From contig OZ004610.1 in the NCBI GenBank assembly GCA_963924565.1, positions 6,634,001 to 6,698,000 on the forward strand: DNA of 64,000 nt, in the 5' to 3' direction. Below the pieces are notes generated by a model. That model worked only from the letters and a program-made list of their open reading frames with translations, ran no database searches and was not told the DNA's origin. The DNA comes from Ascidiella aspersa. Taxonomy: Eukaryota. Positions 49-28,100 of the stretch are shown piece after piece. A program made the translations under genes and the position numbers. Position 1 is the stretch's first letter; every line of letters starts with the position of its first letter.

Positions 49-3000
49 GATCGGACAATTCCCAACGGTCGGAACCGTCGGGCCAACTTGGCCTGGTGAA
101 GGCCTCTTGGGACACGGTTTTGGCCTTCATGGAAGACGAGCGGGAACCTCTGGAAAACGTGAGTATGGCCTTAACCAAACGCCTGTGTTGGATCCAAATA
201 TATAGGATATTTTTTTGTTTGGCCTGCCTGATGCCTGATTTAGGAACGAGAGGCGTATTTTCAAATGTATTGCAAAATAACGAATGCAAACGAACTAATA
301 AAAATGCGTTTAATGATGGAAGCGGAAAGTATAACCACAACGATAGAAAAATGGTGCGAATGTCGAACGTAACTTATAATAAGGTGTGAACAGAAAACGT
401 GATGAGATAACAAACAAAGCGTGGAAGATCCGGTGCAAAATTCAAAAGAAGCGACGAAAAGTAGCGTTAGTGAAAAGGCAAGATTGAAAAATTGGTATAG
501 GGAAAAACAACACACCATTTTTACTTAAAACAAAAAAAAAACGTCAAAATAATTTTTGTTACAACTTTAATCCAATCAATGTTAACTTATAGTTGTGGTG
601 TTTTGTAGAATACTTGATTCAGCCAGTGAAGATCCGGTAAGAGCCCCATAGACTGCGAATGTTGTAGACCCTAATTAAAATAAATAGAAAATCAAGGATG
701 AAGCTAGCCATTACTTGAATTAAAACAAATCTGGCAATTGACTATTGCGATTGTAAGTCAAATCCTATATGTAAATTTGGACCATGTAATATCTCTTTTA
801 TGTTTTAATAGATTAATTTAAATTTCTCTCTACAAGCACCAACTCTCTGATGCAAGATTCCAATCAGTAATATGCCACCAACAAGCCACGAGAAAGACCG
901 ATTGTGTTAAAACCATCATGCTTTCATATTATAGCGTTTTGTTAAGGACGTTTATGCACAGCTTTATAAATTCGTCCACTTACCCAATACAGGGGCAATC
1001 CACGCATCTCTTCGAGTCAACCATCAGTCAGAGGCGAAAACAATTTCGTTCCAAGAAGCGAAACTGGATGAGGGACAGCGATTCTCTCATCCGACGCAAG
1101 CGCGACGACTTCAAAACGTCCAGTCTGAACGGACTGACCTCGAATGGACACGAGACGGCTTCGCGCGTCAACACGACCACGTCGTCGTCCAGCGGCGTTT
1201 CGTCTATCGATTCGCGACACCTGGGCGCGCCAGAGAGCGATTTTATTTCTACAAAGGAGTCGATTGCGAAGCTGACGGTAATGGAGAAAGTGAGTGGAAG
1301 TAATCTGGTCATCTTGTAATGTTAGTCGGTAATCGGAATGTTACAGTAAATGGTAATCGTAATGTTAGATGGTAAGTAAAACTCATAGTTAAAATCATGA
1401 GTAAAAATAGGATCCGACGTTTTGTTTAGAAGGAAAATATATTTCGCCAAGTGGCAACGTCAGTTCCTTTCGAATTAAGCAAACTGACGATGTCATTCGA
1501 ATTAAGGAACTGACGATGCCACTTGGCGAAATATATTTTCCTTCTAAACAAAACATCTGATCCTGTTTTTACTCATGTTTTCAACTATATGAGTTTTACT
1601 TGTTAATATACGCGTCAGCGGAGCAGTGATCGACTGGCTAAAACCTGTCGCCGATAGTTTTGCAATCTATAAAGATACACCCTAATGTTAGATGGTAAGT
1701 TTATGTGGGCCACCCTTGATGTTTAACGTGAAACGCAAAACCTTGAAGTTTAACGATAGACGAACTAAGTGGACTGCCACCTTGAGTGACTTAAACAAGA
1801 CTACGCAAACAGGCTTACTCTTGGCCTTTTGTTTAGATCCATAAAACCTTCGCTTCAGTGGTGTAAACAGTGCACTTCAGTGTATTATTTAATGACCTGA
1901 CATGATTTTAGTCATTTAGACAAATGAATGACTGTTTTTCAAATGAATAATATTTGACATGGTTTCATTTTTGGCTAATTATTGACACGCAAAACAGTTT
2001 TCCTAATTTATGTTTTGTTTTAATTTGTAACAAAATTATCGTAATGGAAGAAGTTCATATATGGGACTTATTTTCTTGTATACCAATGACTGCGATTTGA
2101 CTTGCTATTTGTTTATAAAGGGGTACTAAAATAGAAAATGACTTAACTTAGACTTACATCACTTTTAGGTTGCTGTTAGACACAATGTATCCTGATTGTA
2201 GCTCAACCTGTTGTTCCTAGCCTTTACTGTAGTAAAACAATTCATGGTTTTCACTACATTACATAAATTGTGCCCGCCAAAAACTCGCACCAATAATTTT
2301 TTTGCCGAATTTCTACTTCAATATTTTGCAGCATATACTACAAAAAGCCCTTTTTTCATTAATATAATTCACTAGGCCGGCGATATTTCACGCCACATAA
2401 CGTTACTAACGTGGTTTTGGGCAAGCGTGGAATGCCGAAAATCTTTCGCGGGAAGGTACTAGAATACAATCGGGTTTCACGGTTACGTCACATCAGTGCG
2501 CTAACAGTTACGTGATTCACATTTGTCTGACCACACCTCTGATGAAAACAGTGACGAATTGTGTTAAATTAAGGTTGTCGAGTGTAGCAACGTTCTTTAT
2601 ATAAAACAAAAGTAAATCTTCTGTTACATCCATGGGTTTTTTATGCTTTGTAACCGTTGGGCAGTGACCTGTTCAGTTATACTCACAATTTTTTTTTCAA
2701 GGCTTTTTAAGAACAACCAACCAGTTTATGATTTATTCATACACCTTTCTTATTAAAGAAAATAAATACAAAAAGTCTATTTGAAAGTGATAACAAGGCT
2801 TTTAAATTTCGGTTTACAATACAGTTGCATAGTTTTAAACATACAGCGTTTCACCTTCTGACTACTTCTGACCGGCTTAGACAAGCTTGGTTTAGGGTTT
2901 AAGGCAGACCTATAGTGGTCCTGATCTTCAACAGTTTCTTCAGATTCCCTTTAGTTAGTATCTAAAGATATTACACCCTATACAAAAATTAAATTTGAGG

Positions 3001-6000
3001 GCGGGAATATAAAAAATCATCAAAGTTAAAATCAAATGATATTGGGCGAATAGCACACAGAGTTTTTGTATGTCCTTTTTAACTGCAAGGTTTGTATTCC
3101 TACAGGGCAATTTACGACCCTACACGCCCGTGTTGATCAATATTCGAGATATCAAAGTTAAGAAAAGTTTATATGCCTTAGGTGCGCTTTCTGACGAGCA
3201 TTGGATTGGAGCACACTTCACTACAGGACGAAATCTACTGTCAGATCCTCAAGCAGCTTGTTTGCAACCCATCGGTGCGCAGTGGCGCCCTCGGCTGGAT
3301 ACTACTGTCCTTAGTTTGCGGCTGTTTCGCTCCTTCTGAAACGGTTAGTTTGTTATGTGGTTCATTTTTATTCTTGCAAGATTTTTACCAAAAAAATAAT
3401 TTTGCCATAGCTTCTTCCTCAATATCTATGAGCTAATCTTGTAGAACACTTTATACATCTTTCGTGGCATGGGGAATAAAATTATGAAAGCCAGAATATT
3501 CGATAAAATTCAATATTTTCCTGTAAAATTTAGGACTTAGGAAATAATTAGTCTCACCGTTTTATTTTTTGTCTAAAATAGTTAACTCGCCTTAGTTGAT
3601 CCAACTTTCATCCCCGTTCAATAACATAGCCCAGTGCTGCTTAAACTTTTCAGTTTTGTTCACCCCTAGCATCTATCTCCAGATTTCATTCATCCTTGTC
3701 TCATAATATGATAAAACTATCTCGTCTATATATAACAGCACAAAATGGCTTACACTCAGTGTCCCCAGTTTAAGAAAACGTCGTAGTGTATTAAGTTCCT
3801 GTCACTCGTAACCTCGAGTCACCCCCAGATCCGCCCTTACATCGAGAAGTTCCTAATCCACAACAACAACTCGTGGAGCAAGTTTTGTCTCCTGAAGCTC
3901 TCCAATTTCTCGGGGTGCGCTGATCGCATCATGCCTCCCTGTTCGCTTGAACTACAGGTATGTCCAATTCATATCTCGAGAATTAAAGAAGCTAAAGATA
4001 CGACACTATTCTCGAAAAACGCGCAACAATTTTATTAATAATAAAATCGAGAAAAAACGATGTTTTGGCATTGTTGGACTTACGACCGTTTTTGCTATTA
4101 GCGACGATTTGTTTTTTTGTGATTTATAGTTTTTATTCAGATTTACCGAAGACTTTTATCAAGACTTACAGCATACTTTAATAAAAAAATAAGGTCCAAG
4201 TTTATACAGTGTATTAATCGTAATCTTCACCGCGTTTACTGATTTTTGGACAAAGCGGTGTTTTTCCAGTAAGTTTGCCCAATTTAAATTCAGGCGGCAA
4301 AATCACGCCTTCCTATTCGTCTGCCAGTGATCTGCATGGACCACTCAGTGCGCACCATTTGGGCGCACTCGTGCACGACGGCCGGGGAAATGTGCCACGC
4401 GATGGCGTCAAAGAACAGATTGGGAGATTCGTTCGGATTTTCCCTTTTCCTTGCAATGGATGACAAGGTAAGAAGAGGATCTCTAAATACTAGGCCTAAT
4501 AAAAGCAAAGGCATCTAGATTCAAAAGTAATTGGTAAAACGTCATTTAGGAAATGTAAGATGAATAAACAAAACAAAACCTAGGTGACTATATGCTTTGA
4601 TCTCATTTAGAGGTATGTTTTTTTCCAATGCCGTTTAGCACGTTATACAGTCAGCGTCTGTGGTGTGTATATATCGCACTACTACATTATTACAATCGTA
4701 CAGCACACTGTAAATCGTGAAGTTGCCAAAAAGGTTAAAATATTTTACCTATTTATTTCCTATGCCATGCTTCTGATTCAACGGATGCCTTGCAATATTT
4801 TGACTTGCCCTGATGTTTAGCTTCCAAGTACTTTGCGAGACTGATTTGTAAAACTTTTCTTTAGCTTGTAACGCTTGGAAATGGACTGTTCTACGTGATG
4901 GACGCAATATCCCAAGCGGAGGAGTACAACCGGCAGAACGAAGTGCATGATGTTTGGAGAATTTACTATAGGTAACTATTTAACTGCCTATTTTAGGAGA
5001 GGCTTTCACATTTGCTCCTACCTGTATTTATGTACATTGTACAACCATGTTAGATCGAAAGCGAAAAGCAAAAGATAGTTAATTAAGTATAGTTTTTTTA
5101 AGGTAATTTTCATTGTGTGTTTGGTCGAAGATAGCACAGATGTTACTGTCACAGTCCAAACGGCAACTAATTATTTTTTTATCGTGGTCTATATGTTTCT
5201 TCCTTACTACAACACACACTGTAATGTCGATTTAGGATTTTACATTTAAGCTTTTTTACAGGAGGGAATTTTTCTCTCCATGGGACGCTTGTGGGATCCA
5301 GGAAAACCAGATGAAGGCCTGGTTAACCTATTCACAAATTTGTGGAGGCGTCCAGTCAGAAGAATATCAATGTCAAACTGTGAGCGTTGTAGGACTGTAC
5401 GAATATAGAATATTTACGTTTAGATAAAAACAACTAAAAGGCTAAAAGAAGGGAACGGAAATAAAACTTATTGTCAGAAAAACGTTTTGTAACTGGAAGC
5501 AACAGTAAATTCAGAGGTGAGCTTATGGACTAATATGTCTTGCGAAAAAGCCACAGCGTTAAGTTGAGTTAGGTCAATGACTTGACTTAAGTGGTTTCTA
5601 TTATTAAATGAATTAAAAATCACTTATTTTAATTTACTTGACTTGGCTCTAGTCGTTTGGAAAATAACTTGAGCTAACTTAGGTCTATTGGGCAAATGAC
5701 TTCACTTGAAAGCCAATGTGAAAAACTTTGATTCGATTGCAGGCATATAATTGTCTTTTAAGGGACATTAAACATATTTATTAAATTCCAGAGACAAATT
5801 TATGCCAAGGCTTTTTGGACAACTGAGTTTCGATCAAAACATTGAATGTATGGCCTACTAATATTGTGCCATTTTACCCGTTGTCTAATTTAAGGTCACT
5901 TTAAATCGGTCATGGCCCGTTTAGCACTCATCATTGAGATTTAAACGGGAAGCAATCCGCTATTTTAGTCACCACAAAACTTAAACTGCCCTTCGCATCC

Positions 6001-13101: not shown

Positions 13102-16100
13102 ATGGAGCAGGTAAACATATATAACTTTTGTTGAAGATATATTATATAGATTAGTTAACAACCAACATACCATGCAGATATGTTTGTGGTAAGTATGCGA
13201 CTTCAAGCCAAGTATTTAATTACCTATCAAACAAAAGATACAGAAATGTGTGGTAATAGATATCACTTATTTTGTTACCTATTGACAATATTTTATGTGA
13301 CGACCAGATTAAAGTAAGTAAGTAAGTAATGTTTATTTTTCCGTTAGCGCTTAAATTAAAATACTCAAGAAAGCTATAACAAAAAACAAATTCACGCGCG
13401 ATACGGCCGGAGCAGCGAAGGGTCTAAAACTTTATTTATTTTACACAAGATGTTTATGCAGCCTAAAGTATGTGGGTCTCATCAAGTTTATGCTAAAGTT
13501 TGCCCAGCTAAAAAGCATTTAATTAAGTACAACTTGTGCCAGTAAATAAATTACTGCTAAAAGCCATCTGTACGACAGAACTTTGTTTGATCGACTAAAG
13601 GCTTTTAACGGTGTCTGCAGCTGAGAGTGCAACTGCAGGCCAAACTTTCCATCTTATTTAAAAATGTAAAAAAATTGTAATATACGAGTAGAGCTGCCAG
13701 TTTAATGAATATGTTGGCACTTAATATATGGTGCAATGGGAGCAGTTTGTAAATAGTATTTTTGTTTTTATTTATATTTAACTCAAATTGCTGTAAAGAT
13801 AAAATAAATTGTTTTGATATTACAATAGAATATTTAATAATAGTTCTTTGTAAAATGTGTCCTTGAAAATTGGCGCTGAAGCATGGCATTCTGTCCATTA
13901 TAAAATAACATTTTTTTCTGATATTCTTTTTTCTGGTGTAGAAAAACATCTGGTATTTTTCAGGAAATTTTGAAGCTGGAGCAGGTTTGTGTTGCAATGT
14001 ACGAAACGACCGATGCAAACATTCGACAACAAGCTGAGAAAGTTCTTGTTGATTTTGTAAACGACCCGCATGTTCTTGACAAGTGCCAGCTGCTTTTACA
14101 TAGAGCTGCTGTAAGTTCTTAAATTTGCCAGTCAGCAATTATAAGTTATACATTTTCTCTATTTTTTATTAAAGTGACTATTTAATTTTGTTTATTGTAG
14201 ACTCAAAGCATCAGTCAAAATACTTAACATGACAATTAATTTTACTCGTTGCCAACCTTAAATGAATTTTCATTAAATATTTTCAATACTGTTAATTTAG
14301 AGCGAGCTAAATTTGTTTCTTGAGATAAATAACAATAGCTGGAGAAGCCACCGCACCGCATATAAATTTATATGGCGAAATGCATATTTCTATTAAAAGT
14401 TTTAGACTTTGCTGACTGATTGTTGTTCGAAGCGTTGCGTCAAGCTTTTATTAAATTTCTGAACATTTATCGTCGGCATTATGTATTTTGTTAAAGGGCA
14501 AGAATCTGTTGTTGAAACACGTACTTAGCTTGAGATAAATAATGATAAATAAAATCCCTTTTTTAATGTTTGTATGTAAGTTTTCTAATTTTAATCTACC
14601 TGCAAAGTTTGGCATTTCTCTTAAAAGTGTTTCGTTAAAACCCTATCACGCTACAGCAGTAGAAACTATTATTGCTGTTGGGTAATTAGATTTAATGTGA
14701 CAATAAATACTTTACTAGTTTGCAACCTTAATTGAATTTTTATTGATTATTTTCAATAAGGAAAATTTCGAGCTAAAAATAAATCTCTTTTTTTAAATAT
14801 TTGTATGTATAGGCCATTGTGATGTTTTGTATAAGTTTTCTAATTTTAATCTACCTGCAAAGTTTGTCATTACTCTGAAAGTGTTTTGTTTAAATCCTGT
14901 CATGCCACAGTATAAATAAAAAACATTTGTGCTTTTGTGACATTTCTGTGTTTGTTTTGCTTACCAGTCGCCCTACACAATTCTGATTGCTGCCTCAACC
15001 CTAACAAAGCGAGTCACAAAGCAAGGTTCACCCCTTCCATTGCCACAGCGGCTCGACATAAGTGGGTTTTTTTAAAGATTTTATATAAAAAGTTCTGCTT
15101 CGTGAAAATTCATAGGAATTCAATTTAGTTCCCACAGTGTATACGAGTTAAAACAGTTTTATTTTTATTAAATTATAATTTTGTGCATATATGTATTCCC
15201 TAAACTTATTTTATATAGCATCACAACAAAGTGCTAATTAAGCTTACTTATTATTCTAAATTTGAGCCCACAGTCAAGTAAAACTGTTTCATACATGTCT
15301 TAATTTGACCTGGGGTATTTTTCTATATGTAAACTTAATTATAAATAGAAAAAAAATAAATTAATTATTTAGGTTTGCATGATATCACTTAGTTTTTTGA
15401 CAGGAAACACCAACTCATAAATTTGTTGATTGGGCAACACCAAAACTGAAGCGTTAACCTATTTCTATTTCATATTACATTCATAAGGAAATTACATCTT
15501 GAACTACTTGTACACTGTGACAAAGCAAGTGTCGTTTGTTGAGGAATCCCTTTCACTTCTTTACGCTCGCATCACAAAGATCGCGTGGTTCGATACATTC
15601 AAGGAGGAACTCTGCTTCCGAAGTGTAATAACAGATGTTGGCAAGTTTTTACAGGTATGCTCTGTAATGTTTAAAACACAACTTTATAACTGCTATTATC
15701 ATTGTGTGACTGAAGTCTATTAAGAACTGTAGAAGTCTAAAGGCATATTTGTAAAAAACAACAACAAGATGTTGTTTGTGTTGAAATGCCTTTTCCCTAA
15801 AACTTTTTTTAATACTTTAAATTAAATGAAATATTAATCGACTTTTAATGCAATGTATTTACAGTAATTAAGCATGCAAGTGCCAACATATAAATAAAAA
15901 GTATTTTCCAGTTATTTAAATAGCTTAGTAATTGGAAACTTACAGTGGATGCATTGCAATCTAGGCATAAACGTTATAACTTGTACATAAAACTTTTTAA
16001 TAATGTCAATATTTGTGAAACTCTTGATGTGCAGGGAAACACCTCTCAGTGCATAGTTGGTGTGCAACTTCTCACTGAGCTAGTGGCCGACATAAATCGT

Positions 16101-19100
16101 TCTGACAACATCAAACCGCTGACGAGGCATCGCAAAATTGCCGCATCATTCAGGGACTCGACTCTTTTTGAAATATTTCAGCTTGCATGTAACATGCTGA
16201 GTCAAACTATAGTTTCTGGAAAGCAAATTCAAGATAACGAGAGGGTATGAAATTTGAAAACTGGGAAATACAAAGATATATTACTTTACATTTACAATTA
16301 AATAGTATATTTATTTATTTATTTATCGTCAAAAATATTTTCTGTATTATTTAACCACTGTTTTTAATGCACTGTTCAAACTTTTTGTTTGTATATACTT
16401 ATATTCACCTAATATAACTTTATTTTGAAACTCAATTCAAATATTAGATTCTACAGTATTTCTCTATTTTTCTAATTAAAACTTGCAATACCTTATTTTA
16501 ACAATTCTAGAAGAAAACATTTTTAGTTTTATACATGAAACCAAACTAATTATTTATGTTTTTTATGTGAATATTTTGTTGATATTGATTATGATATTTT
16601 TCAACATGTTTTCAGTGTGCCCTTCTGTCGTCTGTTCTTAATCTCACCCTGAACTGTTTGTCGTTTGACTTCATCGGAACTTCGTATGACGACTCCGGCG
16701 ACGATCTCACAACAGTGCAGATCCCCACCGGGTGGCGTTCCACGTTCGTCAACCTCAGCACTTCACAACTTTTCTTAAACTTATACAATGTGTGAGTAGG
16801 ATGTTATATTTCTCGATATCCTCACCTTATAGAATAGCTTAGTCTTACAACTTGGGATGTTATTTAGGCACACTATGCATGGAGCTTGATAACGAACTAA
16901 AAGTTAAAAATGTCGAGTAGATTGTTAAAATACTGTTTTCCAAAATCTTTCTCACAAAGTTTTTTAAAAGTAGATAAAGCTAAGTTAGGTAGTGAACCAT
17001 GACTATTGTGCATTATTTCACTTGGTATTGGTTCGGCACCACCCTAGTGTCACACAAGTACCTACTCCTACTTGATATCCGGGTATTGGCCCCAATTTGA
17101 TATTATCGGACATTTATGCTTACAACAAAAAATGATGTTTAAGCAAATTTTAAAAATCATACAGAGTGTAGTGTACCAATTTTTTCAAAACTAGTTGCCA
17201 GATAAAAAGTTTTCATGGCCAGTCTTCTTTTTTCACTATTTTAGAGTATACCATTTTTTTCCAAAAATTGATGCTAGATAACAAAATATTTTTTTTCTGT
17301 TCTTCCTATTTTACTGTGTTAGAGTGTACCAATTTTTCAAAAGTACGTTGCAAGATAAAAAAATATTTTTTGCCAGTCTTCCCATTTTACTTTGTCAGAG
17401 TATAGCATTTTTTTCTCCAAAATATATTGCTGGATAAAACACTTTTTTTGCCAGTCTTCCTATTTCACTACGGCAGAGTATACCATTTTTTTAAAAATTT
17501 GTTGCTAGATAACAAAATATTTTTTCCTCATTTTACTGTGAGAGTGTACCAATTTTTCAAAAAAATTAGATAAAAACACTTTTTTTTCAGTCTTCCAATT
17601 TCACTGTGCCCCACCGTAATGTCGTGCCTTGTACAAATCGTGTCCGTGCGAAGATCGCTTTTCAACAACACAGAAAGGACAAAGTTCCTCGCCGACATCT
17701 TGAAAGGAATCAAGGGCATCCTCGAAAATTCACAGGTGAGGCAATTGTGATTCTCTGTTTCTAGTAGTGACAAGCGTGTAAAACTGCGCACCACGTTAAC
17801 AGCAAAAACAGACAAAAAAGACAAAATTTTCTTCCGGTCAAATTGCACATTTTACCATTTTTGACCTTGTAGGTATAGATCAGTGTTTCTTAACCTTTTT
17901 TACTTGGGGGCGCACCTAGAGACATATGAAAACGTGGCGGCGCACCTTACGAGCGAAGCGAGCGCGAAATTTTTGTTTATATTTGTCTTAAATGGCCTGC
18001 ATTTTTTATTATATGGGTTTTATAGTTGCATATCTTTACAGGGACTTCCAGCCTTTGAGACTAAAACCGTTATTTTGTCCATTAAAGTCTTATTCCGATT
18101 AGTTTTGGACTTATTTTGACATGGTTTTCCTTTTTCTCGCGGCGCACCTAGCAGCCTCCCCTTAGCAGCCGGTTGAGAAACGCTGGTATAGATATACAAC
18201 ACAGTTAAGAGTTTTGCCATTGCCATGTCTTTATCTTAGTTGTTGTATTGCGCAGTAGAAGGAAATGATTCTTATGAAATAGCGCTATTGCCAGAGAAAG
18301 TACGACTTAACTCAAAATTTGTGCAGCCCCGAGGCCAAGCTTGGTGGTATTCTATGTTGACGTCAACTTGAAATTGCGGTTTTGTATCAATCTACACATT
18401 CTAATTAAAATATTATGCAAAGTTTATTTTTTTTTTGTTTCAATTTTGTAGGACGCAACAACCTGGTTTACAAGGCCGCGCTAACATATTGGAGCAGAAG
18501 TTGTAGTAATGCACGTAGTAGAAGTTAAATTGTCTCAGCATATATAATATACACACCTCTATTTGTTTTCACCATTTAAAAGTTACTTAAAAAATGTATA
18601 ATTGTACTACGAGCGTGCGGTGTCATTTACCCTGAAGAAGGCGATTTGCATAGGTTGCCGAAACGTTGGTTAACAATTTACAATTATCAGAGGAGCTGTT
18701 TTTGGTTGATATTACTTTGTCTGGTGACGACAGTTTATATATGATATTGTGGTAGAACAGTTGGGGAATAAATCCGGTGCGTTTCATTTAGTTATTAGCC
18801 CCACGAAAAAAAACAAACATTTTTTTAGTAGAAACGCGATTTGACTGAAATACCCTCCTTTCCTTCCCAAACGTGAAAAATATTGGCTTACCACCTTCTT
18901 AGAAAATACAAACCCCGGTTGACATATATTTGAACTTTCTAACTTTAAATTGTTATTATGGCCCTGCAGTAAATCAACTGTGTCATGCTTTTTGCTATGG
19001 TTTCATTAAAATACTAATTTGCCTGTTTACACGCTTGACGCTTCCGGCAAACTATCAGAGCCGATAAATCTCTTGCGTTTTGTTAATGATGTGTATCGCG

Positions 19101-22100
19101 AACTCATTGACTCTGTATGTCACTATTGTTCGTTTTTAAACTGCGCCGAACACATGATTTCGGTTTGTTTACATGATATGAACAAATCATCATTTAACAG
19201 ACTCCCTAATATTTAATCAAAACCCTTTTTAATATCGAGACTGATTTAAGATTGAAAAACTTACCAACTAATAACTCGAACTAAATTCGCACGGTTTAAC
19301 ATTTCATCGAAATTTAGTTTGGAATTACAAATTTAGTAGTTTGGAATTGCAAATTGAGTAGTTTGGAATTTGCCAATTTAGTAGTTTGGTATTGCAAATT
19401 GAGTAGTTTGGAATTTGCCAATTTACGGTTCTAAAGGCCTGCCTATACCCCTTAATAAAACCCTTTATTGCACAGGAACTAACACACGATACGACTTTCC
19501 ATGGAAACTTGGGAAAACGTTTTTTTACTAATCGTTAAAATAAACATCTTGTGGTAAAGGAATATTCCTTCTGATGAAGCACTGGGTCAAAAAAAGTAAA
19601 AAAAAAAAATTTTTAGCAGCGAGTGTACAAATTTGAGTCAAAATATGAGAAGGTCAACTTTATGGATTGAGTGATTTTACATGAAATCACTCGCTCGGCT
19701 AATTTATGCCGCGTAAACACTTTTTTTTGTTTCGAGTGGCTTCGTCGGTTTTCCAGCTGTTAAACATTAAGCACAATATATTTCGTCCAAACTCGGGCGC
19801 GTTTTTTCACCAAGCTGAGGTCTTTTGCTATTTTCACTTCACATACGTTATAGTTACCTTTAGGTGTTTTAAAGTATCTTTGCCCTCATCAGCTTATTTT
19901 GGCTCAAATTTTCACGTCTTTCAATTTTACGCCGTATTCAACTTCTATTTGTAAAATACTCATAGTATTTATTTGCCGAATTGGGCCCTTGAACCTGAAC
20001 TTGTTCTGATCGCGTAAATACAACATAGAGTGAGATATTGTTTCCCGGCAAACTTTCTTGTATCTAATCACTCAAACTAAATCTTTAATAGCGCCTTGTT
20101 TGTTCCCCCAAGGGAAACACGAATTTCAGTTTTAGAAATGACGTCATAAATTGACGTCACGTTACAACTGGATGTCAAATCTGCAGTTACTGGTCAAAAC
20201 ATTGTGAAAGTGAAAGAAAACGTTTTTTTTAAATTAAACTTTTTTCATTAAAAAATTGAATACTTTCCACAAATATCATACTAGGTCTTCGTGGCCCCCT
20301 AAAACTAGTTCACGTACACCCCAGGGGTCCATGGACGCCGGTTTAAGAACCCTACCCTAAACCCTTTATTGCAACTCAGAAACTGACGGACGAAACGACC
20401 TTCCACGAGTTTTGCCGCATGCTGGCGCGCCTCAAGGCCAACTACCAGCTGGGCGAGCTGGTCAAGGTGCCCTGCTACGCCGACACCCTTCAGCTAATCG
20501 CCGACTTCACAGTCACCTCGCTGCGAATGTGGCGCTTCTCGCCCAATTCAATTCACTACTTGCTCAGCCTCTGGCAGGTCAGTCGTTTTTTTGTGTGCGT
20601 TGTACGGGCTACGGGGTCTTATTCGCCTTGGCCTGTCTGGTGCCCAAGCTGTTTTTTATAGCTTGAGACTTGGTTATCGATCCTGTGTGTTGGATATGTT
20701 ATAATTCTGAAAAATAGAAAATGCTGTGGTACACTATGCACGAATCTGTTAAGTAGCTTGATGATGAATCTCAAAGCGAAAAGGTCGAGTAGATCGACAT
20801 CACCTTAATAAAGACGTTTCGATACGAGCTTGTATCATCTTCAGTTAAAAACTTTCATTACCTGACGATGATAAAGGCGTGTCCCAAAATGTGTCGATTC
20901 GCTCACCTTTTTTGAATTCATTTTAAATTATGTTTTTGTAACACTTATATCACAACGCATTTCGGCCAATGACTTCATCCCGTCAAATGGCGATATATTT
21001 TTTTAATATTTACGATTTTTTTTTAATTTGGCCGTTTTGTTTTTTAAGAAAACGCCTCCTATTGTTTTGGGGGGCGTTTTTTTGCAAGTTGTAGGCCATG
21101 TCTACAGAAATGGAAGCTGACAGTGGTTTTATGACAAAATAGATTGACAAGCAGATCTATTCAAAGTAGGAGACAGTTAGTCTTCTCTAATCCTACGGGA
21201 CTTTGGTGCTTTAGGGATGTGGTTAGTTATATTTTACTTGGACAGCATCGTGCAATTACCTGCAGAGTACAGTTGCGCGTCTTGTCCTCATTAACTGTGG
21301 ACTTATTTTGTCAAAAAAGCCAGTTGAACGATTTTTTACCACACTGCATAATGACCTCTCTCCAAACAAGAAAGTTTTCTTTTGGCTTTAAAATGCCGTT
21401 GGTCGTAATACTATGGTCTGCTTTAGGTTGTTGTTGTTGCAGTTTAGGTATTTGTGTGTGCCCATACTAGAGCCCCAGAAGATTGTATCGCAGCTCCAAA
21501 GACTAATTTCGATTTGTTGCACGTCGACAGCGAATGGCGGCCAGCGTTCCTTACGTCAAGGCGCCCGAACCTCACCGCCTGGAGAACTACATGCCGCAAG
21601 TGTTCAAGGCCTACACCGAGTCAAGGCTCGAGTCGGTTGCCGTGATTTTGCGCGACGGCCTCGAATCTCCCCTCGACGACATGTCGTTCATCAAGCAGCA
21701 GCTCGAGCAGATTTCAACCATAGCGCGTTGCGAGTACAACGCCACTTGTACAGTAAGTGTATAGTGCAGGGGTCAGCAAACCGGGTTAGTTAATCCGGCC
21801 CGCGCTGCATATTTCCTTGATGAAGATAAAGTTTTTAATTGCATATAGTTAAAATGCAAGTTGAATTAAAAAAAGGTATTGCGATACCGAGTGCACTAAC
21901 TAATACAGTTCTTAAGTTTAATGGTGAAAATAACGGCCCAAATAGACGTTAAAAGCGACATGCTTTATTTTCAAACGTTTCGGCAATTAGAATTTCGTTT
22001 TCGGCAAATAAAGCATGTCGCTTTTAACGTCTATTTGGGCCGTTATTTTCACCATTAAACTTATGAACAGATCCGTATATAGTGTTCCATAATACAGTTC

Positions 22101-25100
22101 TATTCTACTATGAAACCATACACATACCATTGATGGAAACATCATTTAATGTAAGACTTTCTATATTGAACTAATAAGGTTCTCTTGACTAAACATGTTG
22201 TCACGGCGGCTATCTCAAAATACGCGAAACAAGCATTTAGGGTTTTAACCGGGAAACCACACCTTGATTATTAAGCCATGCGTTCTATCGATCGTTGTTT
22301 CCATTATTTTTTGAAAAAGGATGACAAAGCTATTAAGAAAATTACAAATATTGTTGACAACGCTGATCATTTTTACGAACGGGGGTGTAAACTAGTATTT
22401 TGTTTTAAACCTTTTCCGCTTATTTACACACAAGGGATTTAAGCTAGGCTTGGTAAATGCCGAGTTAAACGTGTTTAAAGATAAAAGTTGAATCTATAAA
22501 GAAATGTTGGAATGTTGTCAGATGCAGATCAAAACTAACTTTTTTGAAATTTCTAACTGTACGACAATTTACCAAGGTTCTACGGCTTTAACTACTTATT
22601 TACTTATATTCCTTTGTATAACGATAATCGATTCAATAAGTTTGACATAAAATGTAATCTCTTAACCTAAGTTTTCTCTCCGGCCCGGGATGGTTTAAGC
22701 TTAGTTATCCGGCCCCGTTTGAAATAAAAATCGGTGACCGCTGGTATTTGTATTCTCGAATGCTATTATTTTGCAGAAAATTTTTTACACGAGGATTTAC
22801 GGTCGCTAAGAAAAGACTGTAATAAAGACTTTTTGAGAAGGGCCATCATTTTTAATGGTATTCATGTAATTTGAAAAAGGAATGTATCTACTCTCGATGT
22901 TATGACGCATTTAAAGACGCAATATATTCGTGAAAAGCTTGGTATAATATGTTATATTTGGACTGGTATAAGTAGTTTGATTGTTGATAACGTGAACGCA
23001 TGTAACATGCCTTTATTGAGAAAACTCATTTAAAACACCGTCCAACAACGCCAAAAAAAAAACTGCGCAATTACCGTACCATAGTTGTTTGCTATCTACG
23101 TTGCCTAAAAAGCCCGATAGCTTATCATTCGACCTGCATTTTTTCTCTTTAGCTGCTTGTTCAAACGTTCGACGAAACCGCCGCCCAACTCGAGGAATTA
23201 CTGCGAAGCAACGTGGACGGCCAGAGACTTCTAGTTCCGCTTGGTAGGCTTATCATATTTTTACGGACCATAGGCCTATTTTACCCGTTTTAAATATTCG
23301 ATTTGCAATCATTTCAGAATGCAAAAATAAATCAATTGCCTGCCGTTAACGACTTAATATAGAATAATGGCGAATTATTAATAATTTTGCTTTGAATCAT
23401 TGTGAAAGGCATTGTCACTTTCCTATAAATTGTTAGCCTTTGGTAACTATTAAATGAAAAACCCTGCATGTGGTTTCTTAACCTTTTTTACCATGTGTCC
23501 TAATAACATATCGACCCCCACCTTGAGCTCCTACAAGAAGTGCTATTTTTGTTTATTAATTTTAACTTTATTTACATTTTTATATCGTTGTGAAGTTTCA
23601 TTTTGGGTAGCTTTTGGTCAAATTACCACTATTAGTCGATTAGATTGTTAGAATATTGATTCAGTGTGTAAATAAATCTACGGACTCTTTAAAAACAGGT
23701 AGCATTTTCCATAAAGTGAATTTATTTATAAATTCTTCTTAAAAAAAATAATCCCAATCTAATTTAAAAAAATTCAATTCTCTCGTTTTAATTCCGAACT
23801 GCTGAAAAAGGTTATTTTTTTGAGCCCATGAAAAACAAGTAGCATTTTCCATAAAGTAAATCTATATGCAGAAATTTTTCCTAAAAAAATCATCCTCATC
23901 TTATTTGCAAAATGAAATGCTCTCGTTTTAATTCTAGTCAAATTTGGAAGAACGGAAATGTTCTTATTTTAATTGTAATCTAATTAAAAAAATCCAATGC
24001 TCTAATAAGGTTTAATCTTACTGAAATATAAACAGAAAAGCTATAATAATAAGGCTAATTTAATTTTAAAAAGCTAAAACAAATCAAATGTCCAATTGCT
24101 GTATGCGTTGCAGGCAAACTTACTTGGATCATCCACTTGGTGGGGTCAGTGATCGGAGGTCGTGTGTCGTTTGCCGCCACCGACGAACATGACGCAATGG
24201 ACGGGGAGCTGGTAATCAGGGTGCTGCAACTTATGACCGTCACCGACAGGTTGGGCGTCTGTAACCTAAACAAACGGAGTATAATAGTCATTTTCCCTTA
24301 CCCCTTCTCGCCAAACATAGCGCGGGTAAAAAATCATGGGTTCAAATCTAAGTCCAAATTAACGTTAAGTTATATTTACTCGATTGAAATACAGTTTCAG
24401 ACTTGTGGTAAAAGAATATATATTTCGCCTTAAAAAGCCATTTTCAGTCCTTGTACAGTGAAATATATACAAAGCAAAGTTAATATAAACAAAGAAAAAA
24501 TTCAGCATTTTATTTTGCATTTAAAGTATACTTGGCTTTCTCATTTGTAAAATCTATTTGCAGTCTAAAAATAAAGTAGCGCTGCCAATCGATAAATTGA
24601 AATATAATGTTCGCAAGCATTCGCACAATCGTGCTTTATCAGAACATAGTTGTTGCGGATACAAATATGTTTGTAGTTCGTGGCCGACCATTTTCTAATA
24701 CTAAATCATAATTTATTAAAAATGCATCATATTTACTGCCAGTATAGCAACAGGCTAAACCAGTGGTTCCTAATCGCCCCCCAAGGGGGTCGCAAGGTGT
24801 TGTCTGGAGGGTCGCCGTGTGCTATTTCATAAAGAAAAACGGCGCTGGTCTAGAATCCTACCACAACGAACATTATTTGGGTTAGGGTGCCGGTTAGCGT
24901 TTGGGTTTGCGTAGTTTAAGCAATATAATTAATATTAAATATAAGCATACTTCACCCACGCTTACCCAACCACTTACCGGCACCCTAACCAAAACATTAT
25001 GCGTTTCTTTAAAAATTGTTATCATGCTGCGGTAGAATTCCAGACCAGCGTCAGAAAAACTTTTGTGCATTCTTAAATTGGTACTTTTTAGCCAAATTTT

Positions 25101-28100
25101 AATACAATCCATCTAGGCTTTTTCCCGACATGCATTTTGCCAATTTTAAAATGTGTGTTTTTTTAATAACTCTGGTTTAGGTATCATATAATTGAAGAAT
25201 CGCGAAAGTTATCGAAAACTTAAAAGGGGTCGCGAGAATAAAAAGGTTGGGAACCACTGGTCTTAACGGACTTGGCCGCAGTAACTTTAGTGTTTACTGT
25301 CTCTTAAATACAGACGCCTTCCATCGGGAAACGGCAACGCTACAATCGAACTTGCCTTCCTCTCATTTTTCGAGCAATTTCGGAAGATATACGTCGGCGA
25401 CCAAGTGCAAAAGAACTCGAACGTAGGTTTTCTGGACAAAACAAAAAAGTTTAGCGACTTGTTCCAAACTATTAGCTTGAGAATGCATTGTGCGTTAAAA
25501 AAAGTAGTTTTACCGTTCGAGAACTTTACCGTAAAATATATTCCTTTTTTTTAATTTAACCGTCACTTTAAATGTATGAGAATTCGATATGAGAAATTTA
25601 TGCCTGTTTTTACATGTTAGTCCGTTGTTAATTATTACAATTCATACCAAAAGTAAATTAGAATAATTACTAGTTTTAAAATTTTACCTAAAATGTTGAA
25701 GAATATTAATTAGGGGCGATACACAAAGCGAGTTAAAAGCACAGGATAGAAATCTTACTACTTTTACCGGGTTAAATTAAGTATATTACCGTGATTTATT
25801 TACCTGTTTAACATAAAGTTTAACCCGATTACTGGGGAAATTAAAATTAAGCATATAACAAACCAACGCTGTGTTTGTAACATACAGAAAACTGTTTTGA
25901 TCAAATAAAATACCTCTAGGATAATTTATAATGATCGTGCTTTCCATGGCTAAAAAAACATACTTAATTTGTTTCGCTGATGTTGCTGCTTATAAGTGAT
26001 TTACCGGAACGTCGCTTTTTTCCGAGCAGGTCTACAAGCGTCTGAGTGAAGTCCTTCAATTAACCGACGACTCCGCTGTTCTTAGTGTCTTCGTCGCAAA
26101 AATGTAAAGAACCTTGCTGCTTTTAGTTAATAAAATTAAATAAAACTATAATGTGAATTGTTTGTTTCATTTGGTAAATCGATTTACTAATCAATGACTT
26201 TTGTGCATTAAGCTGGTAAAATCTAATCATGTTTGTCATGTTTTGGCTCATTTAAAGCCGACGGTGAAAGTGTTTTCAAACTTTAATTTGTGATGACAAA
26301 CGTTTTGGGCAAACATCTTTTCAAATTATTTAGATTTTCTGTAAGTTTATGGTTCGCGATTCTTTCTAATTTCCTTTTTCCCCTAGACTACTCGATTATA
26401 CTATTTACCCAATCTGGTAGATAAAGATTTCTAAAAAAAATTCTATTGCTTTTGTAAATAAATGTCGAATAATGATAAAATTATTGGGTAATATTACCCA
26501 ACTGCCAATAATTTAACAATAATCTATTAGACCAGGGATGTCCAACATTTTATTATAGTGGGCCGCATTGACACTTGAAATAATTTACTGGGCCGCAGAA
26601 CCTATTACGTTTCAAGATTAAGTATTGCTCTTTAGAGTATAACGGACCTTTAGAGTTATATATATATTTTTTACCAATACTATACGATTAGTGCGCCCCT
26701 AAAAGCTGACTGGTACATTTAAATTAGGCTAATATTGAACATTTAAAATACTACTTGGGAGTCAAAATGACTAGCGGCCGCACCAAAATTTCAGACGGGC
26801 CGCAATGTGGCCCGCGGGCCGCACGTTGGACATCCCTGTATTAGACTAAGCGATAATCCACTTGGCCAAAACAAAGAAAAATTGCTTAGTCCACACTGCG
26901 GCGTTCGACGTTGTTAGACTTCCGTTTTTGTTGGTAACTCTACTGTTGTAAGCTTACTCGTTGTATTGCTTTATCGCACAACCCCAGAATCACAAACCTG
27001 AAGTACTGGAGCCACAGTGATGCGATAGTGGGCGGCACCCTCCATCTGTTGGGCGACCTCTCCATTGGATTCAGCTCTGTTAGGAAACTCGTCAAACTGG
27101 ACGCAGTTCGATTTCTACTCGAAAACGACCCTGTAAATCTAACCTTTTTTTTATACATTTTTTGTTCAAACATTTTTGTTTCTGTATAATTTTTTTACAA
27201 TCCGCTGCCAACGAATCCAGCTAACATTGTGTTTTTCTCTGGCTTTTCGCATTTAGGCCGACTTACGATAATAGCACATGTATCAGCAGTACGTCACTTA
27301 ACTTCTAAAGATGACAAAGTAATATCAGTATGCCTTCTACTTTAATTTTTGTTTGAACATTTGAGGCTTGGGAAAAAAAAACAAATCTGCCATATTGTTC
27401 GTTTCGAACACACAACCTCGAAACGACACTCTGCTGACTGAGCAACGCAGGTACAGTGGGTAAACAAGTCGGCAAACTATCGTGGAACCTTTTTCTTGCG
27501 TTTTGCCTTGCGATACTGTATAGTCCTGGTCGACCTTTTGAGCCAGTCAAAGATGTAATAAAAGGCTAATCGAGAAGTTTAACGTCAATATTTGTTTGTG
27601 TGATTTGTTATTTCCGAAGTCAAAAGGCGACGCTGCTCTTTCACAAATATTTTACGCGTTTTTTTTTCATTGTGTAATTCACACCCGAGTCGGAGCAGAA
27701 ACAAAGTCCCAGAAATATCGGATAGCATGTCTAGGGTCTCCCTTCCTTTTACACACTTCGAAACATATGCCGCAATGGCCAAAACAATAAAAACGACTCT
27801 TTCATACCTGCAAATATGACATTTTTTTTAAGTTTCATTTATCCTTTTGGCTTTTCCATACCGCAAGTGTGACGTTGTCATTTTGAGTAGTGACATTTCT
27901 CCTTTTTCAAACTCGCATTTTTTCCAGAGGTCTCACTTTCCCTTCCTGGGCGCGGACTCGAAGGTTACCGACCTGCGATGTCGCACAGTCTTCTACACGG
28001 CGCTCGGAAGACTGCTTATGGTCGATCTCGGTCAGTTGCATTTCCTCGCATGCACTTGCTTTACAAACTTGATTTGCGATTTTGTTTTCCATCCGTTTTA

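Follow-up and report, generated by a model that had tools for sequence, protein, structure and literature searches.

The fold-back insert and its host intron

The window, namely the whole 64,000-bp stretch of the Ascidiella aspersa genome analysed here and numbered from its first base, contains an intron of a MyTH4-domain gene at positions 1290–3181 (GT..AG, phase 0), the flanking exons of which join in frame; the host gene is on the + strand. The intron carries a hairpin-forming insert of 340 nt which begins 70 nt past the donor. The initial annotation had placed this element in sense within a myosin intron; the + sense and the intronic location stand, while the name myosin is only a reasonable inference. 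Elsewhere in the window, exons of an exportin-7-like gene are found at about 15900–28000, with a PF25795 match at 21507–21761.

The insert is flanked by an exact 18-bp direct repeat (1360–1377 and 1683–1700) and possesses two inverted arms (1385–1469 and 1504–1588) which are 93% complementary, with pairing that goes on at 1374–1387/1588–1601. The direct repeat, the arms of about 95 bp, the tail of about 80 bp on the right arm and the 4-nt overlap of the left arm with the repeat had all been described before and are indeed present. The 18 bp should be regarded as an upper bound on the target duplication, because the final 4 nt of the left duplicate (1374–1377) are common to the inverted arm and the first 6 nt of the right duplicate (TAATGT) match the element's own end in other copies. 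The target itself sits in a degenerate 19-bp tandem (1316–1375). The long hairpin proposed earlier is well defined, with a folding energy of −161 kcal/mol (z = −20) that was equalled by none of 100 shuffles.

On the minus strand, the short tail-less arm (1374–1469) starts at site 2, the inner end that is fixed in the family, reaches back as far as a leader AAG, and contains a hammerhead with an A9U core change at base 1457. The spacer between the arms, formerly described as scrambled, is composed of recognizable parts on the + strand: positions 1493–1506 correspond to nucleotides 3–16 of a spliced-leader-like 16-mer (SL-A), standing in place of the splice acceptor of ORF-bearing copies, and positions 1470–1492 are a partial repeat of the leader/exon junction, consisting of the last 10 nt of SL-A and about 12 nt of the exon start, which likely arose by slippage at the RNA 5′ end. 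The third CTGACGATG noticed in the spacer is real. The right arm, also on the + strand, includes the pLTR body between the splice point and site 2 (1507–1604) and the tail from site 2 to site 1, the fixed outer end (1605–1688), and is followed by the right target duplicate (1683–1700).

The hammerhead

A minimal type I hammerhead (1504–1543, + strand), the stem I of which takes its outer half from the leader AAG, reads AAGGAA / CTGACGA / T / GCC-ACTT-GGC / GAAA / TATAT / T / TTCCTT and combines the CUGANGA and GAAA core elements with stems I and II, the palindrome ATATAT at stem III and an AUU cleavage triplet. As had been claimed, the core of the right arm is intact and that of the left arm is mutated, the latter (CTGACGT) by a single change; a pattern search of the window gave 2 matches against 0 expected. 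The Rfam search of the insert returned no hammerhead models and just miRNA-hairpin models below the gathering score, the latter mirroring the hairpin shape only. The proposed check for covariation in the stems gave a positive result, as stem I changes in a compensatory manner across the three main families (GAA/TTC, AGA/TCT and ATATA/TATAT, 129 contexts), with 6–8 bp of pairing within a family and 1–2 bp across them.

A U at position 17 makes a slow cleavage site. The predicted pairing probability of the hammerhead stems is 0 both in the whole insert and in the transcript prefix, and 0.54/0.98 in the isolated arm. According to these folding predictions the long hairpin would abolish the hammerhead fold of the window copy, leaving it buried and inactive, and it is unlikely to be active in the host pre-mRNA. 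For the host, this one intronic insertion is probably neutral. The idea that the leader improves stem I was considered weak, as just one A-U pair is added in a T-rich context. An ATG in stem II opens a 15-codon frame (1516–1560), equally long in the two main length variants, a possible upstream ORF.

The parent Penelope-like element

The genome-wide search for copies that had been recommended as a check was performed (974 candidates, 40 scored, 98 matches). The copies have a common fixed outer end and a variable other end, often with an inverted arm whose outer end is fixed as well. Longer copies, L037 among them, possess an ORF coding for a reverse transcriptase (RT; PF00078, E = 7.5e-7) and a GIY-YIG endonuclease (PF01541, E = 2.5e-5) upstream of the same pLTR sequence. 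The suspected relation to Penelope-like elements (PLEs) was borne out, since the sequence of the insert is that of the 3′ pLTR of these copies. There are at least 77 ORF matches, many of them 97–100% alike, and the full-length relatives have 930–974 aa; a PDB search with the RT gave nothing useful. The window copy itself contains no ORF. It belongs to subfamily 1 and is about 95% like L307, an acceptor-bearing copy with the same haplotype.

The closest named proteins come from the ascidian Phallusia mammillata (47–48%) and also have the CxxCxxC linker between the RT and the endonuclease that is conserved in all six aligned proteins. A Cys-rich linker in this place is a feature of the Neptune/Nematis clades (PMC8557442), of which the element is a candidate member. 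The pLTR with a hammerhead, the partial tandem and the inverted 5′ copy are present in L068 and others, with L068 showing the order inverted arm, partial tandem, ORF, pLTR, tail and duplicated target. Target duplications of at least 12 nt flank 24 of 43 copies as compared with 7 of 400 control pairs, and those of at least 10 nt flank 34 of 43 (control 8%); the family median is 12.5, against the 8–10 bp reported for Adineta PLEs.

Beyond the tail, other copies run about 25 nt further to the ORF start, a conserved ACCATG found in two subfamilies; the continuity of acceptor, tail and ORF start was pieced together from L037, L304 and L077, none of the loci covering it in one piece. The tail was rejected as the ORF N-terminus, as stops precede it and the conserved ACCATG comes after. 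At the right end of L007 and L014 there are several head-to-tail repeats of the final 22 nt of the tail, which suggests reiterative copying at the start site.

Long inverted arms together with a flanking direct repeat could also belong to a fold-back DNA transposon or MITE with a hammerhead-like motif arisen by chance, a reading that deserves practically no credence: the arms are neither terminal nor equal, many copies are one-armed, the ends correspond to a retroelement pLTR, covariation of stem I is seen between families, and the linkage to RT + GIY-YIG ORFs refutes it. On structural grounds, as far as sequence can tell, the insert is a terminal piece of a recently active RT + GIY-YIG PLE and not a retrozyme.

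Two arrays of candidate spliced-leader genes

The spacer holds 14 of the 16 nt of a leader that matches tandem genes with a splice donor. The SL-A 16-mer followed by GT has 2301 exact matches in the genome (control 0), and 77 of the first 100 matches listed lie in an array of 429-bp units (G000:C7, about 14.76–14.82 Mb) with a GTAAG donor, a small hairpin and a U-rich Sm-like stretch. A second 16-mer, SL-B, has 623 matches (control 1), 28 of the first 100 listed being in an array of 584-bp units of the same design, likewise with a GTAAG donor (G000:C3, about 5.22–5.29 Mb). Neither array has a match in Rfam, and the Ciona Sm motif is in neither unit. Being multicopy and tandem, with the leader followed by a donor, a hairpin and a U-rich site, the SL-A units have the gene structure of SL RNAs and are regarded as candidate genes.

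SL-B is identical to the leader of Ciona (PMC7986045), a genus described as having one major leader (PMC1488885). The Ciona system resembles the present one in the 16-nt length of the leader, the repetitive gene family and the very short SL RNA (PMC1488885, PMC7986045), and differs from it in that a second, more numerous candidate leader is found here.

SL-A also heads diverse dispersed genomic copies, some directly before ORFs. Dispersed SL-headed ORFs coding for coiled-coil proteins were seen near position 1500 of L090, L093–L095, L109 and L111, the last of which matches PF25298, and in some of them a second, relic leader adjoins the first on one side or the other; these are probably LINE 5′ ends recycled via trans-splicing. 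In addition, a sequence headed by SL-B occurs in a unit repeated about every 10.6 kb (L098–L103, G000:C1, 3.28–3.34 Mb). Both SL arrays are interrupted by two-ORF LINEs of about 7.4–7.6 kb (L314, G000:C7:14790300-14798500, and L315, G000:C3:5284700-5293100) with a zinc-knuckle ORF1 and an ORF2 coding for an APE endonuclease and an RT, both frames being open. The two LINEs are inserted at the same point, about 30 nt from the start of the SL RNA gene, have little DNA similarity to each other, and are presumably SL-gene-targeting elements of the Tx1/L1 type.

Leader and acceptor at the same base

In ORF-bearing copies, the base before GAACTGA closes a pyrimidine-rich, unpaired splice acceptor located directly before hammerhead stem I. 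The window copy and many short copies have the 16-mer leader at exactly that base instead. Exact junctions were counted 97 times for SL-A, 38 times for SL-B and 140 times for the acceptor (controls 0), the counts being of arms and those for the leaders taking in a sister subfamily; the leader end followed by CTGANGA has 435 matches (control 1). Among 30 hammerhead cores picked without regard to the upstream sequence, 22 had the acceptor, 6 had SL-A and 2 had something else, namely an acceptor variant and a core cut at CAG. There was no cis-exon class among these 30 cores, and cis-splicing to an upstream PLE exon was discarded on that account. Loci were mostly taken from contigs C1–C4 by pattern searches.

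All 16 leader nucleotides are present in 21 of 42 SL copies and at most one mismatch is found in 30 of 42; none of these 30 near-complete copies reads through into the DNA upstream of the SL genes. The short copies end at the first base of the leader. Two further families, AGA and ATATA, are each SL-headed in 11 of 30 cases and have acceptors of their own and upstream RT/endonuclease matches of 40–53%. Six metagenome hits, representing three distinct loci of another organism, have SL-B before other hammerheads, with one full fold-back; L308/L310 and L311 share an insertion site and differ in having a full or a shortened inverted arm, which is likely an allelic deletion within the hairpin.

These data point to a PLE terminal repeat and tail with a spliced leader joined at the acceptor, and it is quite probable that the insert was reverse-transcribed from element RNA to which the leader had been trans-spliced. 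A leader could also be placed there with no splicing at all if the reverse transcriptase changed templates to SL RNA or an SL-capped mRNA, and it is true that both leader and acceptor end in AG and that junction slippage and template jumps are common in the PLE family of the window copy. That explanation is nevertheless very improbable, as the join runs exactly from donor to acceptor in three families, the intron part of the SL RNA is never included, and a class with variable positions is absent from the 30 unbiased cores.

It was also considered that the SL-headed copies constitute a non-autonomous PLE-derived family, SINE- or retrozyme-like, in which a master copy with a DNA-encoded leader is amplified in trans. 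The short copies are many, animal retrozymes are described as deriving from PLE pLTRs (bioRxiv 10.64898/2026.07.22.740005), and the relic second leader in some other SL-headed elements indicates that re-copying occurs in this genome. Exact SL junctions are concentrated in the older stem II variant, with 13 among 43 there and 0 among 57 in the youngest, an imbalance compatible with the re-amplification of SL-headed masters; elsewhere, in L003 and L005, the youngest variant does have SL copies. Such a family is all the same improbable. The swap takes place at one and the same base for two leader types, in two subfamilies and in three families, and the acceptor and the upstream pLTR are lost from the short copies. 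SL and acceptor copies have haplotypes in common. In a tree of 47 copies (52 rows less 5 unclassified), which is poorly resolved and has no strongly supported branch, the SL copies do not cluster, SL-A requiring 12 changes against a shuffled mean of 11.7. No head-to-tail hammerhead tandem units were found in the window at 1000–3300 or among the loci examined, and no RNA back-joints indicative of circular RNA were seen among the matches listed for one RNA run of low depth. The independent non-autonomous family or retrozyme suggested in the initial annotation is not supported, as its sequence is that of the 3′ pLTR of ORF-bearing copies and the inner junctions differ in every copy.

In two mappings of RNA run X6, from a species not established as this one, the leader at the acceptor was absent among the loose ends listed; sense-type depth climbs after the acceptor, with embedded stubs confounding depth.

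Arms, ends and start sites

The ends of 43 SL copies lie near pLTR position 96 or 179, two fixed sites about 80 nt apart that bound the tail. All 24 two-armed copies among them (23 independent) consist of one long and one short arm, with the tail on one arm only in 24/24. In 10 of these copies it is the long arm that has the leader, in 14 the short one. At least 5 of the 24 have arms that do not overlap. Of 33 head-to-head pairs, 22 are acceptor/acceptor, 7 are SL-A/SL-A (2 of which, L089 and L302, may be separate neighbouring inserts), 1 is SL-B with an AAG remnant and 3 are unclassifiable, with no mixed SL/acceptor pair among the 33. Taken alone, the agreement of SL type between arms is weak evidence.

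With a trans-spliced template granted, the second arm could be a product of the first cDNA folding back, copying itself and then being cut at site 2. This would account for the splice state and the variants common to both arms and for the palindromic junctions, and Craig et al. ascribe the tail to endonuclease resolution of an intermediate (PMC8557442). The scheme is unlikely, as self-copying cannot produce the non-overlapping arms of at least 5 of 24 copies, the leader stands on the short arm 14 times and on the long arm 10 times, and the protein of the anole element Poseidon was described to extend both strands from two internal starts in vitro (PMC11167929).

Proposed mechanism

In the mechanism proposed here, the spliceosome would add a spliced leader at the element acceptor by hammerhead stem I. 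The capped product, probably the mRNA, would have about 220 nt ahead of its ORF. As the ORF begins about 25 nt past the tail, the spliced form would serve as mRNA, and the stub would have been copied from the 5′ untranslated region of that molecule. The element protein would make cuts about 12 nt apart in the two DNA strands, and each free target end would serve as primer for reverse transcription from one of the two internal sites, in the way described for anole Poseidon in vitro. Both primers would likely act on the same RNA, resulting in twin priming with displacement where the arms overlap. On spliced RNA the copies would reach the cap after 100–190 nt and join head to head into a non-coding stub, and unspliced RNA would give long copies that keep the acceptor.

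Three propositions are put forward jointly, and for the three together the chances appear about even: that trans-splicing at the hammerhead divides the RNA of the PLE into two pools, the SL-capped mRNA leading to short dead ends and the unspliced template to full copies; that the leader serves as a tag of the individual molecule, both mirror ends being derived from one RNA by twin internal priming; and that SL-A is a second major ascidian spliced leader. The division into two pools would explain why PLEs appear to keep introns.

Comparison with known systems

The inverted pLTR, the tail and the hammerhead are known PLE features (PMC8557442; Arkhipova et al. 2013, PMC3846280). Like canonical EN+ PLEs as described, the element has the RT followed by GIY-YIG in one ORF, 5′ truncation, a partial tandem, an inverted 5′ copy, a tail on one arm, a target duplication and a hammerhead in the pLTR; it differs in the tail of about 80 nt, compared with 30–40 nt in print, and in that many copies are SL-headed.

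In Penelope of D. virilis a cis-spliced intron ends where hammerhead helix I begins (Cervera and De la Pena 2014, PMC4209133). The acceptor is likewise at the 5′ end of helix I here, which gives spliced and unspliced RNA different helices (6 versus 5 bp, or 8 versus 7, in the present element); in contrast to Penelope, the acceptor is joined to a leader supplied in trans, and the genome has retained the spliced form as cDNA.

For anole Poseidon (PAc), two internal starts that bound the tail were described in vitro, with both strands cut and extended (Frangieh et al. 2024, PMC11167929). These traits, as well as the AT-rich targets and an ATG at hammerhead stem II, are common to PAc and the present element, although the stem II ATG opens only 15 codons here and the ORF starts after the tail. 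PAc is a member of the Penelope/Poseidon clade; the present protein has a Cys-rich linker. The rule of one site per arm and the common splice state are not among the points made in the accessible text of that paper.

Trans-spliced RNA is copied back into DNA in dinoflagellates as well, where retrogenes carry SL relics (PMC5585692, PMC6050394), and transposon RNAs of Hydra take the host leader, about 30% of TE long reads being SL-bearing (PMC12220107). As described, neither case concerns PLEs with internal initiation, whereas the leader here completes a ribozyme stem and caps a product of 100–190 nt. Non-LTR retrozymes (bioRxiv 10.64898/2026.07.22.740005) have in common with the insert a type I hammerhead, an origin from a PLE pLTR and the non-coding nature; they are head-to-tail tandems with one hammerhead per unit, and the present insert is a single head-to-head insertion. 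No report of SL-trans-spliced or SL-headed PLEs was found among the papers listed in a search that covered openly available main texts; Repbase or Dfam might already record such elements.

The new part of this work is the proposed trans-splicing at the ribozyme together with what the copies record about priming; the fold-back arms, the tail, the target duplication and the minimal hammerhead are known for PLEs. The origin of the inverted ends and tails of PLEs and their retention of introns were posed as questions in PMC8557442 and PMC11167929. Hundreds of genomic copies record the splice state of the copied RNA and the start of each arm, which makes both questions countable. If derived from trans-spliced RNA, the SL-headed copies would be a natural record of where PLE copying starts and how the mirror ends are built, and they suggest that host trans-splicing could supply the element mRNA and at the same time turn its copying towards stubs. 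For the annotation of ascidian mRNA 5′ ends, a second 16-nt leader would be of importance as well.
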